Assembly (NCBI GenBank): GCA_963712115.1
Contig: CAVQGX010000026.1
Location: forward strand, 32,001 to 96,000
Direction: 5' to 3'
DNA length: 64,000 nucleotides
Origin: an uncultured delta proteobacterium
Lineage (GTDB): Bacteria > Desulfobacterota > Syntrophobacteria > BM002
Position numbers and translations under genes: made by a program. Positions within the stretch are counted from its first letter, which is position 1. Every line of letters begins with the position of its first letter. The notes under the pieces were generated by a model. The model was not told where the DNA came from, did not search any database, and saw nothing but the letters and a program-made list of their open reading frames with translations. Positions 27,837 through 35,359 of this stretch are shown here, one piece after another.

Positions 27837-28361
27837 CTACAAAATCAGCTCATAAATGCCAGGTAGCTGGCGGTTGGCTTCATTGCAGTCTAGGCCATAG
27901 CCAACAACGAAGCCCTTTTCCAGCTGCAATCCAACGTACTCCAGCGGGATGGACACGGTGCGCCGCTCTCTCTTATCTAAGAGGGTACAAATCTTCACCG
28001 AACGCGGCTTTTTGCTTGCCAGGTGTTTTTTCAAAAATGCCGTAGTTAGTCCAGAGTCTACAATGTCCTCCACAATAAGGACGTCACGACCCTGCAAATC
28101 AAGTTCAACATCTGTGGTGATTCTAATCTTGCCGCTTGACTCTGTGCCAGGACCGTAACTGGCCACTCGAATAAAGTCCAACTGTACTGGTATGGTCAGT
28201 TGGCGCACCAGATCAGCAAGAAAGATAAAAGCACCTTTGAGAACCCCTATGAGTACAACCTCTTTGCCCTCATAGTCTTGAGAGATCCGGTTTGCCAGCT
28301 GTTGAACCTGACGGGCAATTTTTTCGGCGGTAAATACCACACGCTTTTCGTGCTTATTCAT
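27837..28361 (-). CDS. hpt: Hypoxanthine phosphoribosyltransferase
   Basis: VLIVEDIVDSGLT and FVVGYGLD. Confidence 0.95.
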   Translation of the reverse strand: MNKHEKRVVFTAEKIARQVQQLANRISQDYEGKEVVLIGVLKGAFIFLADLVRQLTIPVQLDFIRVASYGPGTESSGKIRITTDVELDLQGRDVLIVEDIVDSGLTTAFLKKHLASKKPRSVKICTLLDKRERRTVSIPLEYVGLQLEKGFVVGYGLDCNEANRQLPGIYELIL

Positions 28362-28466
28362 ACTCCGACCTGTGGCCGCTGGCAGAAGACTCAATTATCC
28401 CGCATCTATAACTAGCTTAGATATGAGGATCTTGTCAACTATTTTGAAAACTTAGGCGTTCTAGTC

Positions 28467-28579
28467 ACTAGATACTGGATACAAGGCAGCAACAAATCTC
28501 CCATACGTCTTGACCCAGGGAAAATCGCAAATGTATCATCTAGCATCCAGCATCCAGTATCAAGCATCGAGCATCCAGC
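28467..28579. repeat. GATACTR/YAGYATC heptamer array
   Basis: CTAGATA-CTGGATA facing TAGCATC-CAGCATC-CAGTATC-AAGCATC-GAGCATC; the same family occurs at 57618-57690. Confidence 0.7.
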
Positions 28580-28589
28580 TCATTTCACA

Positions 28590-28618
28590 TTGACATCTCG
28601 GGGCTAGAGTTGCTACTT
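28590..28618 (+). promoter_or_regulatory. Putative sigma70 promoter for the NtrC-type gene
   Basis: TTGACA-N17-TACTTT. Confidence 0.55.
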
Positions 28619-28672
28619 TCAGACCAGTGAGGCAACAAACTGCCAACTCCCATTGGTAGACGTTGTCAGGCA

Positions 28673-28813
28673 TAACCGCAGAGATCACAAAAGGATAATT
28701 TGAGATTTTAGATTGTAAGATTGCAGATTGCGAAATTCTCTAGTTCCTACTTTTGTCAATCTGCAATCTTCAATCTACAATCTCAAATTATCCTTTTGCG
28801 ATCTCTGTGGTTA
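28673..28813. repeat. Near-perfect 141-nt palindrome with a GATTGCA heptamer core
   Basis: Arms of about 58 nt differ at about 4 positions. Confidence 0.9.
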
Positions 28814-28876
28814 AATTCCCTCCTTCGATGGTGGGTTGGGCTGGAGCGAAGAACAGCGCAGAACTGTGATAGAGAT

Positions 28877-30280
28877 ATGAGTAAGGATAAATCCATAAAA
28901 GCCAAGATCCTTGTTGTTGATGACGAACAGGGGGCTAGGGATGCCCTACAGGTCATTCTTGAGGATGATTATGAGGTGACCACTGCTGCTGGTGGGCAGG
29001 AGGCAATCGCATATTGTGAGGGTTTTGATTACGATTTAGTTTTTTTGGACGTCGCCATGCCAGAGCTTGATGGCATTGCCACCTTAAGAAGGCTTCGCAC
29101 CATGGACGAGCCCATGGACGTTGTTATGATCTCAGCATCGGACAAAGCGGACAAGGCGGTGGAGTCTATCAAGCTTGGTGCTTATGACTATATCACCAAG
29201 CCTTTTGAGCCTGACGATATACTATCGGCGGTGGATCGGGTTCTGGAGAAACAAACCTTGCAGAGAGAAGTCCGTTATCTGCGCTCTGAAATAGCCCACA
29301 GATATGGGGAACTGGAGATTGTGACAAGGGATTCAACGGTACTGGATATCTTGCAACTTGTAAACAAGGTGGCAAGCGCCGCTAGTTCCGTTCTTATTAC
29401 CGGCGAAAGCGGCACTGGCAAAGAACTGATAGCCAGATCGCTGCACCAGCACGGCGACCGCTGCAAGGCTCCTTTTGTGGCGATTAATTGTGCTGCAATT
29501 CCCAGTGAACTAATGGAGAGCCAACTTTTCGGCCACGAAAAAGGGGCTTTCACCGGGGCCCACACTCGCACCATTGGGAAGTTCGAGCACGCCAATGGCG
29601 GGACCATTTTTTTGGATGAGATTTCGGCCCTTCGCCCTGAGCTGCAGGCGAAACTCCTCCGGGTTATCCAGGACAAAGAGATCGTGCGGCTCGGCAGTAA
29701 CCGGACTATAAAAGTGAACGTCCGTATCCTGGCCGCTACTAATACCAATCTGGAGGACCTTATAGAGGAGGGCAGCTTTCGGCGGGATCTCTACTTTCGG
29801 CTCAATGTCATCCCCATTTATCTCCCGCCTTTGCGCGAGCGGGAAGGCGATGTAAGACTCCTGGCTCAACACTTCCTTAACAGGTTCAACCTGCAGCTGA
29901 AGCGGGAAATGAAGGGTTTTACCGACAAGGCTATTGAAACCCTAGAGCGCTACCCGTGGCCCGGGAACATCCGTGAGTTGGAAAATTTGATCGAGAGACT
30001 GGTCGTACTGGGACGGGAGGGCGACTACATATCATATGAAGACCTGCCATTGGAAATCCTCCTGGATTCCAGCCTTATGACAGAGACTCCCCCCTTGGGA
30101 GATGGATTGCTTCAGGCCCGGGACAATTTCGAGAAGCAATACATCCTCAAAGCCCTGAAAAAGGCGGAGTGGAATCAGAGCGAAGCCGCCCGCATTCTCA
30201 GAATTCATCGGAATACCCTAATCCAAAAAATGAAATCCCTGGCGATCAAGGAATCACCTTCCGCAAGCCCCGCTAAATAG
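28877..30280 (+). CDS. Sigma54-dependent response regulator (REC-AAA+-HTH, NtrC/AtoC family)
   Basis: VVDD..FLD..KPF receiver; GESGTGKE, GAFTGA and WPGNIREL; Fis-type HTH. Confidence 0.96.
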   Translation: MSKDKSIKAKILVVDDEQGARDALQVILEDDYEVTTAAGGQEAIAYCEGFDYDLVFLDVAMPELDGIATLRRLRTMDEPMDVVMISASDKADKAVESIKLGAYDYITKPFEPDDILSAVDRVLEKQTLQREVRYLRSEIAHRYGELEIVTRDSTVLDILQLVNKVASAASSVLITGESGTGKELIARSLHQHGDRCKAPFVAINCAAIPSELMESQLFGHEKGAFTGAHTRTIGKFEHANGGTIFLDEISALRPELQAKLLRVIQDKEIVRLGSNRTIKVNVRILAATNTNLEDLIEEGSFRRDLYFRLNVIPIYLPPLREREGDVRLLAQHFLNRFNLQLKREMKGFTDKAIETLERYPWPGNIRELENLIERLVVLGREGDYISYEDLPLEILLDSSLMTETPPLGDGLLQARDNFEKQYILKALKKAEWNQSEAARILRIHRNTLIQKMKSLAIKESPSASPAK

Positions 30281-30325
30281 TCTTCCTCCTCAATTCACCT
30301 AGCATGACTAGTCACTCGGCAGTAA

Positions 30326-30695
30326 ACACTAGGCACAAAGGCGGTGAGAAGTCAGAGGTCGGAAGTCGGAGGTCAGCAAGGACAGACGACAGAGGTCGGA
30401 GGTCACGTCTGATAATCTAAGATAAAGAGTCTACTAGCTAATAGTCAGTAGGAGTGGCATAGGGCATAGAGTAAATCCCCATGCCTAAAGCCCCTAACTC
30501 TAGGCGCTCTGCGCTCTACGCTTTGCGTCTGTAACAACGGACTACGGACCACGGACAACTGACAAAAAGCCAGATGCCCGCTGCCTGTTTAGCCGGTTTA
30601 GCCGTTGGCCATCAGCCCAGAAAAGAATTCCACCTTCCGCGTTCCGACTTCCGCCGTTAAATCCTCGTTTCGCCCGACCTCCCGTTTCGCCGGAG
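30326..30695. repeat. Composite heptamer/octamer array
   Basis: GTCRGAR, GCATAGR, GCTCTRC, ACNACGG, TTTAGCCG, TTCCGMN and GTTTCGCC blocks. Confidence 0.75.
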
Positions 30696-30714
30696 TGCTT
30701 TGCACTCTGCGAAC

Positions 30715-30751
30715 TGCACATTAGCCTGGGCAATGCACAAGATCATGTGCA
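30715..30751. promoter_or_regulatory. Putative tandem enhancer (UAS) for the sigma54 activator
   Basis: TGCACA-N6-TGGGCA and TGCACAAGATCATGTGCA; 14/18 match at 34818-34835. Confidence 0.55.
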
Positions 30752-30937
30752 GTGGCTAGACAAAGCCTGAACTCTTCACAACCTTCCATGGGTAATGCTC
30801 TATATTTTCCAGGCCAGACTATCTTAGACACTGTGCAAACCTATCTGGCAACTAGGAATTTGTCTTCTCTCCAACTGCAATTAATTATTCTGTAATCTCA
30901 TAAGTATAGACGCCAATTCCTCCCCTATTGTCCCCTC

Positions 30938-30953
30938 TGGTACCGACCTTGCT
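30938..30953 (+). promoter_or_regulatory. sigma54 -24/-12 promoter
   Basis: TGGTAC-CGACC-TTGCT with correct GG-N10-GC spacing. Confidence 0.7.
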
Positions 30954-31017
30954 CTTACTCCCCCCATCTCAGAAACGGGGCACAAATCCTTTACACATAT
31001 GAGAGGAGGGAGAGGCA

Positions 31018-31120
31018 ATGAAAAAGACTAAGAGGATTTTGCTGCAACTACTCATTACTGGAAGCATTATTGCTATGTATGTTCTGCCGGCGCTGGCAAG
31101 CAGGGGGCGGGGGCGCCTAA
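31018..31120 (+). CDS. Small signal-peptide precursor (33 aa if a 1-nt insertion is corrected; 63 aa to 31209 as written)
   Basis: Strong RBS GAGGAGG; MKKTKR-hydrophobic-PALA signal sequence; then GGG GGC GGG GGC GCC TAA one base out of frame; terminator directly after. Confidence 0.65.
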
Positions 31121-31151
31121 TCACGACCAACGTGTGGTTGGTTGGTGTAAG

Positions 31152-31184
31152 AAGCATAGTCCTTTGGGGCTGTGCTTTTTTTTT
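31152..31184 (+). terminator. Intrinsic terminator after the peptide gene
   Basis: AAGCATAGTCC-loop-GGGCTGTGCTT followed by a T-run. Confidence 0.8.
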
Positions 31185-31275
31185 GCAAACTGTCGGAAAG
31201 CTGGTATAGTAAGTATTTCATAGAGCCAAGATAGACGTCTAATTGGTAGACAAATCAGACACGGGATTAAAGCTC

Positions 31276-32892
31276 ATGAAAAGACTACTGTTGCCGTTCG
31301 CTGTTATACTGATGCTTATCATCAGCTGCCAACAGGAGCCTACCGGAACCCCAACGAGTTCAACCGAAGCCACGATAGGCGGTGTCTACCGAGCTGCCCT
31401 TCCCTGGAGTCCGACGAATCTCTGGATCCGCGCCTTCACCACGGATATCTACTCGGTAACTCTAATCCAACAGATCTTTGACGGCTTAGTTCAGTTCGAC
31501 AAGAATCTCAATGTAGTCCCGAGCCTCGCCAGCTCTTGGAAAGTATCGCCGGATCGGCCTTACTTACACGTTTACTCTCCGAGAAGATGCCAAATTTCAC
31601 AACGGCCGACAGGTGACAGCTGACGATTTCGTCTATTCATTTACCCGCATCCTGGATCCAGAGGAGCCAGCAGGCGCACTAAGCTTCTTTGAAAGAGTTA
31701 AGGGGGCGGCGATCCTACCGAAATGGGAAGAGTAAAGAAGTTGCTGGTCTCAAGGCCCTTGATGCTCACACCCTGGAGATAACTCTCAGATGAACCTTTT
31801 GCACCGTTTCTGTCCAGTGTTGGCCATGGCGATTCCAAGGTGGTTGCCCCGAGAAGAGGTCGAACGGTGGGGCAAGGAATTTGGCCATCACCCGGTGGGC
31901 ACAGGTCCCTTCCGCTTGGAGTCTTGGGAAGGGAATCAGATTGTGCTCAGTGCAAATCCTGATTACCACGAAGGCAGACCTTATTTGGATCGAGTTCGTC
32001 TACACCATCTATGCGGGTGCGCAACGAAAGAAGATCCTGCAGGATTTTTAGGAGGACCGCTTGGAAGAAGCGCTAGTCTTCGGAGCAGATCGAGAGGAAA
32101 TGGCCAAGTCAGCCGTCTATCAGTTCGTCAGGAAGCCCAGTCTGAGCCTGCAGTTTTACGGAATGAATTGCGACCAATTCCCCGTTGAAAGATAGACGGG
32201 TACGGCAGGCTCTGAGTTGGGCCATCGACAAAGAAGAAATCGTTCGTGAGGTGTTCAAAGATCAATTCATTCCTGCGGAAACAATCCTGCCGCCCGGCAT
32301 GACCGGCTATACTCCGGAAAACGCCGCCTACGGTTATGATCCTGAAAGGGCCAAAGAACTCCTTGCTGAAGCCGGGTATGGTCCATCACAAGAAAAGCTG
32401 TCATTGACTCTCCTGTCTGCTTCGAAATCAAACGTGGCCCAGAAGAGAATTGGCCATGGTAGCAGCGGACTTAGCTGATGTGGGAGTTGAACTTCAAATC
32501 CAATACGAAACAGATTGGCCCACCTTTGAAGGCAGCTCTCAGATCAACGGAAAGTTCCAGATTGTATCGGTACTTCTGGTCTGCTGACATTCCGGATCCC
32601 GACAATTTTGTCAATGTACTATGCGGCTCAGACTCTCAGTACAACTTCATGCGCTACAACAACCCCAAAGTGGATCGCCTCCTTGCCCAGGCTCTGGCAG
32701 AAACCGATATTATCAAACGGGTGAGGCTGTATCGGGAGGCTGAGAGTATGATCTTGGAGGATGCTCCAATGATTCCCTTTATGTATTGGGTCTTCGAGTC
32801 CGTTTTTCAACCTTACGTCAAGGGCCTGGAGATTAGTGCTCTAGGACAGCCCATACATTCCTCTGAAAAAGATCTGGCTCGATAAGCACTAG
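31276..32892 (+). CDS. Family-5 (OppA/DppA-like) solute-binding lipoprotein, fragmented by several frameshifts
   Basis: Lipobox IISC; IFDGLVQFD, LASSW, PVGTGPF, VRQALSWAID, YDPERAKELLAEAG and DAPMIP spread over consecutive frames. Confidence 0.85.
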
Positions 32893-32967
32893 TCGTTCTT
32901 TTCTACCCCTTCATGTGCGTCATCGCCAGTTCACCGAAGTCTAACGACCATCAACGGACAGCGCTGA

Positions 32968-34792
32968 ATGTCCTGGTTTGCCCGAAAAATACGTTTGAAG
33001 ACTCGATTCATGGTCGCTATCGGCACAGTTCTTTTTGCGCTAATGGCGATTATTGTTTTGCTGGTGGGGAATCGGTCCACCCGGATCATTAAACAGGAGG
33101 TGGAGGCCCGCGGTCTTGCTGTGGCCCGCAGCATCGCTGCTGTCTCCACTAATGCTCTAGTAACATACAATTACATTACCTTGGAACAGAACGCCGAAAA
33201 GGCCGGCCAGGGCACTGATATTGTCTATGTCATTGTCCTCGATAAAGAGGAGAAAGTAGCTGCATTTAGCGGTCACAGCGGCTGGCAAGGGAATTATTTG
33301 GACGATCCGGTGAACAAAAAAGCTCTGGCTGCCAAGAGGCCGGTTATCCAGTCTGTTTTGTGGGAAGAAACGGGTGAGCGGGTACTGGATATAGGTGTGC
33401 CAGTTTTCATCTCTAGTTCTGACATGAAATGGGGCACCGTTCGAGTGGGACTTTCTCTTGAGCGCATGTATTGGCAAATTAGACGGACCCAATTGGTTCT
33501 GGTGGGAATTGGCACAGTGGCTCTAATATTAGGACTTGCCGGAGCCCATGTCATGGCCAGCCGTATCACCCAACCATTGGGCCAATTAGCCAACGCCACA
33601 ATCGCTGCCGCCGAAGGTGACCTAGATCAGCGGCTAGATATCCACACCAGAGATGAGGTAGAGGATCTTGCCAACAGCTTCAACACCATGATCAGTGAGA
33701 TTTTGGATCAGCGGGTGCAACTGGAGCAGCGTTTCAATGAAATCTTAGAACTCAAAGCCTATAACGATATAGTTTTGGCTTCCATGACCAACGGCTTGAT
33801 AACCCTGGATTTGGGTTCACGGATTGTTAGTGCCAATGGCGCAGCAGAATCCATACTGGGGCTGGAGGGCAGGCACTGGCAGGGGATAAGTTTCCGTGAC
33901 CTGTGGCCTAAAGACAACTCACTAGTTCGATTGCTGCAAAAATGTCTACAAAGTCAGACTCCTTGCCGTAACCAGGAAATCTCATTGGACACGGGCGAGG
34001 GAAAGCAGCGCACCCTCATGGTGAACACCTCTTTCCTAGAAGATGGAAGGGAGGAAACAATGGGGGTGTTAGTAGTGATAAACGACATTACAGAGGTAAA
34101 GGCCCTGGAGGCTCGAATGCGGCAGAGTGACCGACTGGCCGCTCTAGGTACACTTTCAGCCGGACTTGCCCACGAAATCAGAAACCCGCTCTCTGCCATC
34201 AAAACCTTTGTCCAGCTTTTGCCGAGAAAGATCTCAAATCCCGCCTTTTTTGATAAGTTTCAGACCACCGTACCCCGCGAGTTGAACCGGATCAACGATC
34301 TCATAGAGAGCCTACTGGAATTAGCACGACCACCCAAGCTCGAATTTAAGATGACCTCATTTAAGTGGTTGTCTCTCCCAGGTAGAAGATCTCTATCGAG
34401 ATAAGCTTGAGGCAGCCAACATCACCCTTGAAATTAGCCAAGAAGAATCTTTGCCGGAACTCTGGGCCGACAGGGAACACTTGGTACGGGCATTATCCAA
34501 TATCGTGGTAAACGGTCTAGAGGCCATGCCTGAGGGAGGCAACCTCACCGTCACCGCTGAAGAACAGGCAGGAGGGGTGGTACTTCAGTTCACCGACACC
34601 GGTGTAGGCATGGACGAGGCCACCAAAGATAAGATATTCAACCCTTTCTTCACCACCAAAGACACAGGCACAGGGCTTGGCCTGGCCATGACGCACAAGA
34701 TCATCCAGGAGCACGGCGGCGATATTGAGGTTGACAGTTTGGTTGGCAAGGGAACTACCTTTACCTTGAGATTTCCTGGAGTGCAAGGATGA
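32968..34792 (+). CDS. Sensor histidine kinase (TM-periplasmic-TM-HAMP-PAS-HisKA-HATPase), one frameshift near 34361
   Basis: AHEIRNPL; N, G1, F and G2 boxes in the downstream ORF. Deleting one T joins both as ...TSLSGCLSQVEDLYRDK... Confidence 0.92.
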
Positions 34793-34993: not shown

Positions 34994-35359
34994 ATGGCAT
35001 ATTTAGATAAAGAAATAGTAGTGGTGGATGACGACCAGGGGATTCTGGAGTCATTTGATGCAATGCTTGGGGATGATTATCCATTGGTGACCTTGGACAA
35101 TGGGTTTGCCGCTATTGAATATGTGAAATCCCACAAACCCAGACTCGTCTTTCTAGACATAAAAATGCCAGGTATGAATGGTATGGAGGTGCTCAAAAAG
35201 TTAAGGCAAGATAAAGTGGAAGTAGCAGTGGTAATGGTTACAGCTACGACCCAAAGCCATTACGAGAGCGAGGCGGAGGAGTTGGGCATAACCGCTTATC
35301 TGCGCAAACCTTTTGAGATTGATGAGGTGGAAGATATCACGAGACGAGTGCTACATTGA
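34994..35359 (+). CDS. Single-domain response regulator
   Basis: VVDDD, FLDIKMP, VTA and KPF; AGGAGG RBS. Confidence 0.95.
   Translation: MAYLDKEIVVVDDDQGILESFDAMLGDDYPLVTLDNGFAAIEYVKSHKPRLVFLDIKMPGMNGMEVLKKLRQDKVEVAVVMVTATTQSHYESEAEELGITAYLRKPFEIDEVEDITRRVLH

Follow-up and report, generated by a model that had tools for sequence, protein, structure and literature searches.

RESULTS

A conserved 33-codon gene hidden by one surplus base

The window analysed here, the whole stretch of 64,000 nucleotides (nt) at positions 32,001 to 96,000 of contig CAVQGX010000026.1 (assembly GCA_963712115.1) from an uncultured delta proteobacterium (Desulfobacterota; Syntrophobacteria; BM002), contains a small open reading frame (ORF) between the genes for a sigma-54-dependent response regulator and an OppA/DppA-like solute-binding protein (SBP), with genes for a histidine kinase and a receiver-only response regulator further downstream (Table 1). 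An initial annotation, made from the sequence alone, had proposed that this ORF is a hidden precursor with a signal peptide and a short Gly-rich tail, obscured in the deposited sequence by one surplus base. Comparison with relatives strongly supported the gene structure so proposed and showed that the window carries a conserved 33-codon gene hidden by one surplus base.

Table 1. Features of the peptide locus in the window
Feature	Position	Strand	Remarks
Sigma-54-dependent response regulator gene (REC, Sigma54_activat, HTH_8)	28721..30280	+	Domains from Pfam of orthologues; 90.9% identity to L037 orthologue over 473 amino acids (aa)
Sigma-54 type -24/-12 element, TGGTAC-N5-TTGCT	30938..30953	+	80 nt before ATG
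Conserved small ORF	31018..31120	+	Surplus A at 31098/31099 interrupts the window copy
Signal-peptide-like part	31018..31098	+
Tail codons	31100..31117	+	A-GGGG-A in the frame of relatives
Stop codon	31118..31120	+
63-aa ORF as written	31018..31209	+	Frame-break product, not the conserved gene
GGGGGCGGGGG	31103..31113	+	Nucleotide-invariant in 15/15 of the window's family
Block GTGTGGTTGGTTGGTG after the stop codon	31132..31147	+	Nearly invariant; family-specific; 3' arm of a weak hairpin (31124-31144)
Intrinsic terminator	31153..31184	+	10-bp stem, 4-nt loop, T-run
Sigma-70-like promoter for the SBP gene (TTGCAA, 16-17 nt, TG-n-TATAGT)	31183..31210	+	Conserved in the window-family alignment
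SBP_bac_5 (OppA/DppA-like) lipoprotein gene	31276..32892	+	At least five frame changes; tblastn frames 1,2,1,2,3,1
Histidine kinase gene (sCache_3_2, HAMP, PAS, HisKA, HATPase_c)	32968..34792	+	One frame change near 34334-34365
Single-domain response regulator gene (REC only)	34994..35359	+	90.9% identity to L037 orthologue

As deposited, MKKTKRILLQLLITGSIIAMYVLPALA (31018-31098), encoding MKKTKR, 17 hydrophobic residues and P-A-L-A, is followed by a-gca-ggg-ggc-ggg-ggc-gcc-taa, and its ATG is placed 8 nt behind GGAGG at 31005-31009. One base at the two A's of 31098/31099 is missing in all 13 relatives aligned with MAFFT, and contigs of relatives from public sequencing runs omit one base at 31098 or 31100. 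All 14 relatives L002-L015 have a 33-aa ORF ending in X-GGGG-X-stop, composed of a signal-peptide-like segment, L-P-[AV]-L-A, one variable residue, GGGG and one further variable residue. The products of wider relatives are 30-33 aa long, with an MKK start, a hydrophobic stretch, Y-x-L-P-[AV]-L-A and X-GGGG-X, and the short ORF was also read in sets of 17, 29 and 19 loci. The Gly-rich tail comprises 5-9 residues, and the stop codon in relatives lies about 30 nt ahead of the terminator. Of the two repairs that had been suggested for the window copy, A-GGGG-A is the tail of two relatives (L008 and L011) and is obtained in the window once one A is dropped, whereas S-R-GGG-A occurs in no relative.

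It is scarcely credible that this organism's true gene is the 63-aa ORF in its deposited form. The deposited sequence encodes it and a gene caller predicted it (P0003), but the frame is absent from every relative examined, P0003 being the window's own product, and to translate the extension, ribosomes would have to pass a conserved terminator hairpin, the loop of which differs in length from species to species. The objection that this ORF crosses an intrinsic terminator had already been raised in the initial annotation, and folding together with an alignment of 14 sequences confirmed a conserved hairpin there. Homologues do not back the 63-aa frame and the short ORF is conserved, two of the points on which that annotation had staked its proposal.

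Selection on the signal part and the tail

Among 15 sequences of the window's family, the variable columns at the first, second and third codon positions number 17, 13 and 28, and the ORF is kept while third positions vary, so that its conservation is far beyond chance. In the signal part, 25 of the 27 third positions are variable, indicating a translated gene. The GGGG motif is spelled by different codons in distant members (GGT-GGA-GGT-GGT, GGC-GGC-GGT-GGC and others), and glycine itself is therefore under selection. Tandem copies in one genome have identical tails and diverged signal parts (L077, L090 and L095), and the first and last tail residues vary widely between lineages.

The residues at -3 and -1 of the predicted cleavage site are [AV]-x-A in all rows of the window's family, with I at -3 in a few wider members (L091). 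At -2, L is invariant in the 17-row alignment, with M or F also occurring there in the wider set, in which one member lacks the P (L119, with T there) and two lack the Y. The basic n-region, the hydrophobic h-region and the small -3/-1 residues of a Sec signal peptide are all present, with the h-region at the long end of the range. In many members (L069, L070, L074, L083 and L090), the first tail residue is Cys; the resulting V-L-A-C or V-M-A-C is near but not a canonical lipobox, and some products might be lipid-modified or thiol-bearing after cleavage.

Two short elements are conserved at the nucleotide level in the window's family (Table 1). The G-run GGGGGCGGGGG spans three of the four Gly third positions, at which distant members use other Gly codons, and the block GTGTGGTTGGTTGGTG is not present in the distant loci L042, L046 and L050. 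Both could be RNA- or DNA-level elements, for example a G-rich structure or a site through which the downstream promoter is regulated.

Distribution of the gene family

A 521-nt region around the ORF has a DNA-level match in 17 of the 21 other genomes of the window's family, and the ORF itself is the portion shared with other genera. With a peptide profile, the gene was found in 17 of 22 genomes at the level of the order (a count that includes the window's own and a weak partial hit), in 49 of 122 genomes of the class (three weak hits counted) and in nine of 401 evenly sampled genomes of the phylum. In a profile search of 1.84 billion cluster representatives, 59 passed the cut-off of E <= 0.001, and 51 of these show P-x-x-A followed by a C-terminal Gly-rich tail of 5-9 residues, most commonly six (34 of 51). 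The other eight are three long unrelated proteins, the frameshifted product of the window, the frameshifted P0033, a read-through form, an N-terminal fragment and a two-glycine member.

The carriers are uncultured metagenome-assembled genomes of Syntrophobacterales, Syntrophobacteraceae, Desulfobacterales and Desulfobacteraceae, together with three cultured strains, Desulfocicer vacuolatum DSM 3385, which has three identical copies, Desulfoferrobacter suflitae DRH4 and Desulforhabdus sp. TSK. Their tails read TGGGGP (calculated mass about 444 Da), CGGGGR and CGGGGN, respectively. Tandem arrays of two to four copies are common, and identical triplicate arrays occur at L069 and L115. The peptides match no model in Pfam or NCBIfam (0 families), source databases label the members 'hypothetical protein', and a search of the open literature that included the literal tail strings, with supplements and non-open papers outside its reach, returned no description of the family. 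This family of 30-33-codon genes is so far undescribed and without a curated model.

Promoters and terminators

In 14 of 18 loci, the ATG is preceded at 72-90 nt by a -24/-12 element that is identical to that of the window or differs from it by one base, and the other four have GG[CT]A[CT]-N5-TTGC[GT], so that all 18 have an element within 72-135 nt upstream. Among 29 further loci, the strict pattern precedes the first copy in 21 and TTGCC or GGGCAT variants do so in six; masking or a contig end leaves the other two without assessable sequence, and all 27 assessable loci thus have a sigma-54 element. The background of the strict pattern was 36 matches in 527,778 nt, true sites included. Later copies have no promoter of their own, and the arrays thus look polycistronic. 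The window's genome has rpoN (Sigma54_DBD), and the predicted promoter is most likely driven by the neighbouring sigma-54 response regulator.

In the terminator, positions 31153-31162 pair with 31167-31176. The 111-nt fold has a z-score of -4.09, with none of 200 shuffles as good, and nine pairs of the stem are kept in all 14 aligned sequences, with one-sided changes at three and two-sided changes at one. A simple consensus terminator scan did not list the terminator at 31153-31184, which folding and alignment reveal. A terminator also follows the ORF or array elsewhere, for example at L046 and L050. Contigs from RNA run X24 (30866-31049 and 31099-31211; 85-96% likeness) were not counted, as DNA carry-over is possible and one of them starts upstream of the predicted promoter.

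This arrangement could be viewed as a regulatory element, namely a glycine-codon leader or attenuator or a dual-function small RNA, that tunes termination at 31153-31184 and read-through into the SBP gene. Four Gly codons, a stop codon, two hairpins and a T-run stand directly upstream of the next gene, the G-run and GTGTGGTTGGTTGGTG show their nucleotide-level invariance within the family here, and the predicted sigma-54-made RNA of about 220 nt would adjoin the gene for its activator, as the Qrr RNAs adjoin luxO. However, we consider this explanation very improbable. Distant members differ in their Gly codons, in the absence of the 16-nt block and in terminator spacing, and the downstream gene has its own conserved promoter. 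RNAalifold showed no conserved alternative pairing, and no antiterminator/terminator pairing overlapping the end of the ORF was found in the alignment of 14 sequences. The first hairpin (31124-31144) is almost without covariation and is not claimed as a conserved structure. Furthermore, a leader peptide needs no conserved signal-peptide-like body, and an Rfam search of 28000-34000 gave no match at the ORF.

The neighbouring genes form a conserved module

Five loci with differing outer flanks share a core composed of the sigma-54 regulator, the peptide, an SBP_bac_5 protein, an sCache kinase, usually with PAS, and the receiver-only regulator, as assigned by a Pfam scan of 38 proteins up to 6 kb on each side (shorter ORFs left out). 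In all 29 further loci, the next gene after the peptide is that for SBP_bac_5, on the same strand, the kinase follows it in all 27 loci with a long enough contig, and the order SBP, kinase, receiver is constant. The sigma-54 regulator gene is upstream in 21 of the 26 loci with enough sequence, and in some Desulfobacterales loci it is adjacent but divergent. Among the Pfam-scanned proteins there were no ABC permease or ATPase domains, no RRNPPA cytoplasmic TPR receptor (Rap, NprR, PlcR or Rgg type), no RiPP-modifying enzyme and no dedicated protease-exporter. The SBP gene is thus an orphan adjoining a kinase with a periplasmic sensor domain. Signal peptidase I (Peptidase_S26) genes are encoded in the window's genome.

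The SBP begins like a lipoprotein, with Cys18 nearly invariant. Its profile scored best against the solved peptide binders 8upi, HbpA, DppA, OppA, MppA and PrgZ (187-279 bits), compared with about 127 bits against NikA, and its W-x-x-D-x-P-D-P-x-N-F motif aligns with the motif of HbpA and MppA. The Asp of this motif holds the free N-terminus of the ligand in DppA and OppA. Backbone nitrogens allow oligoglycines to bind Cu(II) and Ni(II), and proteins that bind nickel or metallophores belong to SBP_bac_5; the peptide might accordingly be a ribosomally made oligoglycine metal chelator for a NikA-like protein, or the precursor of a ribosomally synthesized and post-translationally modified peptide (RiPP) with a modified tail. 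The NikA and CntA models do match the SBP, though far below their cut-offs. The likelihood of such chemistry seems minimal, given that the SBP is nearer to peptide binders than to NikA (279 vs 127 bits), that the scanned proteins include no modifying enzyme or transporter and that the first tail residue is highly variable.

The regulator gene of the window encodes 519 aa from its first TTG, compared with 467-482 aa in relatives, and because the orthologues are shorter its true start is likely the ATG near 28877 (MSKDKS...). In NCBIfam, the models that best match the kinase and the regulator are AtoS/AtoC-like, with scores that do not reach their cut-offs; for the regulator the best model is AtoC, with LuxO among the weaker hits, and the ZraR and ZraS models also match the regulator and the kinase, respectively. 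A nested inverted repeat at 28673-28813, with 43-nt arms that are 93% complementary and inner 19-nt arms, lies just upstream of the likely start of the regulator. The only Rfam matches in 28000-34000, two sub-threshold matches to microRNA families at 28692-28795, are due to this repeat, which could be a regulatory palindrome or a small mobile element. In Syntrophobacteraceae-type loci (L046, 10560-11711; L050, 10677-11840; L067; L070), the receiver-only regulator gene is followed by a gene for a hybrid protein (receiver, HisKA, HATPase_c), which suggests a longer phosphorelay than in the window's family, where an alpha/beta hydrolase gene on the opposite strand stands there instead.

Apparent joint divergence of the peptide and the binding protein

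Comparison across species of the window's family gave identities of 66-76% for the SBP, 84-95% for the regulator and 73-96% for the kinase. In pairs with a kinase identity of at least 85%, the SBP identity minus the kinase identity averaged -1.5 points when the tails were the same (n = 6) and -14.0 points when they differed (n = 16). In a sliding comparison of L035 (S-GGGG-T) with L045 (Q-GGGG-A), DNA identity was 90-95% across the regulator gene, fell to 63-86% over the peptide and SBP genes and returned to 87-96% starting at about kinase codon 30. The peptide and SBP genes are a sharply bounded hypervariable island between conserved regulator genes, a pattern known for pherotype loci such as agr and comQXP. 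The link that the initial annotation had drawn between the peptide and the adjacent binding protein is supported indirectly, by the synteny in 29 of 29 loci, the peptide-binding relatives of the SBP and the tail-linked divergence.

Frame breaks in the window

All frame breaks of the window fall within 31018-34792, with one in the peptide gene, at least five in the SBP gene and one in the kinase gene, whereas the other genes of the window are long open frames and those flanking this segment are intact. The SBP gene is also intact in relatives (534-539 aa). All surplus bases are insertions in the window relative to near-identical environmental contigs, and none is in a homopolymer. Contigs from run X2, which are 96-98% identical in the SBP gene, have one base fewer at each of 32173, 32442, 32530 and 32564. 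The first three coincide with reading-frame changes of the SBP gene, and the surplus at 32564 together with two at 32552 (runs X1 and X12) amounts to three bases, leaving the frame unchanged. The near-identical run X2 gave no cover across 31022-31243, and the strain of the window was not found in public sequencing runs, the best of which shares 0.13 of the sampled words; the contigs of the four runs compared with the window come from relatives.

The window's genome has a reported contamination of about 6% and duplicate marker hits. Two rpoN hits and two equal-scoring signal-peptidase hits were located on separate contigs (C17/C58 and C16/C59, respectively), and the bin may contain redundant contigs from two strains. 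We judge a consensus error in a strain-heterogeneous region to be considerably likelier than decay, and the peptide, SBP and kinase genes of the window were probably frameshifted by assembly error. The sharply bounded divergence described above could also explain a poor assembly consensus exactly at the peptide-SBP block. At L071 (6601-6711; also P0033), the first of two tandem copies is frame-shifted and reads A-A-R-R-R-G-T, compared with A-GGGG-P in its neighbour. Members of the family are easily garbled or slip-prone, and 30-codon genes with G-runs such as these are easily lost, the window copy and at least one other being broken.

DISCUSSION

From the conservation and arrangement of these genes, we propose that an exported 5-7-mer, released by signal peptidase, is sensed by the orphan binding protein and the kinase, with feedback through sigma-54, a mechanism to which we give an even chance. 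Transcription would begin at the sigma-54 promoter and end at the gene's own terminator. The precursor would insert N-in/C-out with its basic end inside, leaving only six uncharged, flexible residues to cross the membrane, and signal peptidase I would cut after L-A, freeing a tail of about 0.4 kDa. The free 5-7-mer would be the cognate ligand of the adjacent orphan OppA/DppA-like lipoprotein, which would modulate the neighbouring sCache histidine kinase. The kinase would signal to the sigma-54 regulator, and a feedback loop would close on the peptide gene. The variable residues at the tail ends and the fast-evolving binding protein would then provide each lineage with its own signal-receptor pair.

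Several observations weigh against this scenario. The hydrophobic stretch of 17 residues, or 21 with P-x-L-A, is long for a signal peptide and may be a membrane anchor. The product might thus be an uncleaved micro-protein, a single-pass inner-membrane helix (N-in) with a periplasmic Gly tail that, together with the lipoprotein, serves as an accessory regulator of the kinase in two-component feedback, comparable to MgrB for PhoQ and to SaeP and SaeQ for SaeS. The polar Q/E and the Y conserved within the segment, the presumed control of the gene by its own system and the lack of a dedicated exporter gene in the module are in line with this possibility. However, the tail beyond the A-x-A-type site is the most conserved feature, and the paralogues keep their tails while the helix diverges, the opposite of what is expected of a helix-helix regulator. 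Arrays of two to four copies suggest bulk production, and a tethered six-residue tail could hardly reach the cleft of the binding protein. We regard a membrane-bound micro-protein as the main alternative, though an unlikely one.

The signal part is also over-conserved for a generic signal peptide, with Q10, Y21, P24 and L26 nearly invariant. The intramembrane protease Eep releases streptococcal SHP and enterococcal pheromones, and such a protease might similarly free a longer hydrophobic signal here, such as Y-x-L-P-V-L-A plus the tail. Y-x-L-P-[AV]-L-A is conserved past the needs of signal peptidase, and OppA-type proteins, including PrgZ, bind hydrophobic 7-9-mers. Nevertheless, the -3/-1 residues are canonical for signal peptidase I, the scanned neighbours include no protease gene, and the variation between lineages sits at the two ends of the tail and not in Y-x-L-P-V-L-A, which makes release of a longer signal quite improbable.

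Further points against release and sensing of the short tail concern the nucleotide level, the module and the comparisons. The G-run GGGGGCGGGGG and the 16-nt block GTGTGGTTGGTTGGTG, nucleotide-invariant in the window's family, are both left unexplained by a peptide-only model, and the sigma-54 regulator is not adjacent in five of 26 loci. The peptide, the SBP and the kinase are all frame-broken in the window, and if these breaks were real, the module would be dead in this genome. Among pairs of lower kinase identity, same-tail and different-tail pairs did not differ in SBP identity relative to kinase identity. The co-divergence is suggestive only and statistically weak, because the pairs come from about nine genomes, in which the tail may have changed independently only two or three times.

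Phr-type (RRNPPA) signalling propeptides of Bacillus are the subject of related literature (PMC11343458). Unlike these, the precursor here is only 30-33 aa long, without a pro-region, in a diderm host (Desulfobacterota), and neither RRNPPA receptor nor Opp permease genes are linked to it; the signal would be received in the periplasm, by a binding protein together with a histidine kinase, and its gene would be transcribed with sigma-54. The two share a small ribosomal precursor with an N-terminal Sec-type signal peptide and a C-terminal active 5-6-mer (here the predicted one), an OppA-family protein in reception, tandem propeptide units and lineage-specific variants. LuxP-LuxQ with the sigma-54 regulator LuxO is a binding-protein-coupled sensor kinase. 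CBP-ChiS of Vibrio cholerae is another (PMC12704726). Like these systems, the module places an orphan periplasmic SBP beside a membrane kinase, with no transporter genes and with a sigma-54 response regulator in the pathway; by contrast, its ligand would be a peptide from the cell's own adjacent gene, and its kinase has an sCache_3_2 sensor and matches AtoS/AtoC-like models, no LuxP homology being claimed.

PrgZ of Enterococcus pCF10 (PDB 4faj) is likewise an SBP_bac_5 lipoprotein (187 bits) with a short ribosomal peptide as ligand, but its ligand, a hydrophobic heptamer cut out of the signal peptide of a lipoprotein, is passed on to the Opp permease and imported. In the ZraP-ZraS/ZraR, MgrB-PhoQ and SaeP/SaeQ-SaeS systems, a system-induced envelope accessory beside the two-component system feeds back on the kinase, sigma-54-dependently in the Zra case. 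However, ZraP has about 140 aa and is a folded protein of the periplasm, MgrB and SaeQ function as membrane proteins with no cleavage to a hexapeptide, and none of ZraP, MgrB and SaeP/SaeQ has sequence similarity to the peptide. The module is thus reminiscent of Phr-type propeptides in the presumed making of the signal, of CBP-ChiS or LuxP-LuxQ/LuxO in its reading and of ZraP-ZraSR or MgrB-PhoQ in the logic of feedback. It belongs to none of these types: defining features such as an RRNPPA receptor or Opp permease genes were absent from the proteins scanned in five loci, and it shares no sequence similarity with them.

Ribosomal peptide signals are textbook knowledge for Gram-positive bacteria and rare or disputed in Gram-negative bacteria. 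The compact conserved module of five genes, for the sigma-54 regulator, the peptide, the binding protein, the kinase and the receiver, is found in anaerobes from sediments and digesters, and in it the peptide and the putative receptor diverge jointly while the signalling core is constant, the pattern expected of private signal-receptor pairs. Judging from these gene-level patterns, sulfate-reducing and syntrophic bacteria may use the product of the small gene as a secreted signalling peptide. Because the module is present in cultured strains, this hypothesis is directly testable with synthetic hexapeptides. We tentatively suggest as a possibility that Gram-negative sulfate reducers and syntrophs make X-GGGG-X themselves as a lineage-specific autoinducer ('pherotype'), exported by Sec and released by signal peptidase, of about 0.4 kDa and thus small enough for porins, read in the periplasm by the orphan OppA-like lipoprotein and the sCache kinase, amplified by a sigma-54 activator and encoded with its receptor in a cassette that evolves as a hypervariable unit. 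If true, this would be a diderm counterpart of the peptide quorum sensing of Gram-positive bacteria.

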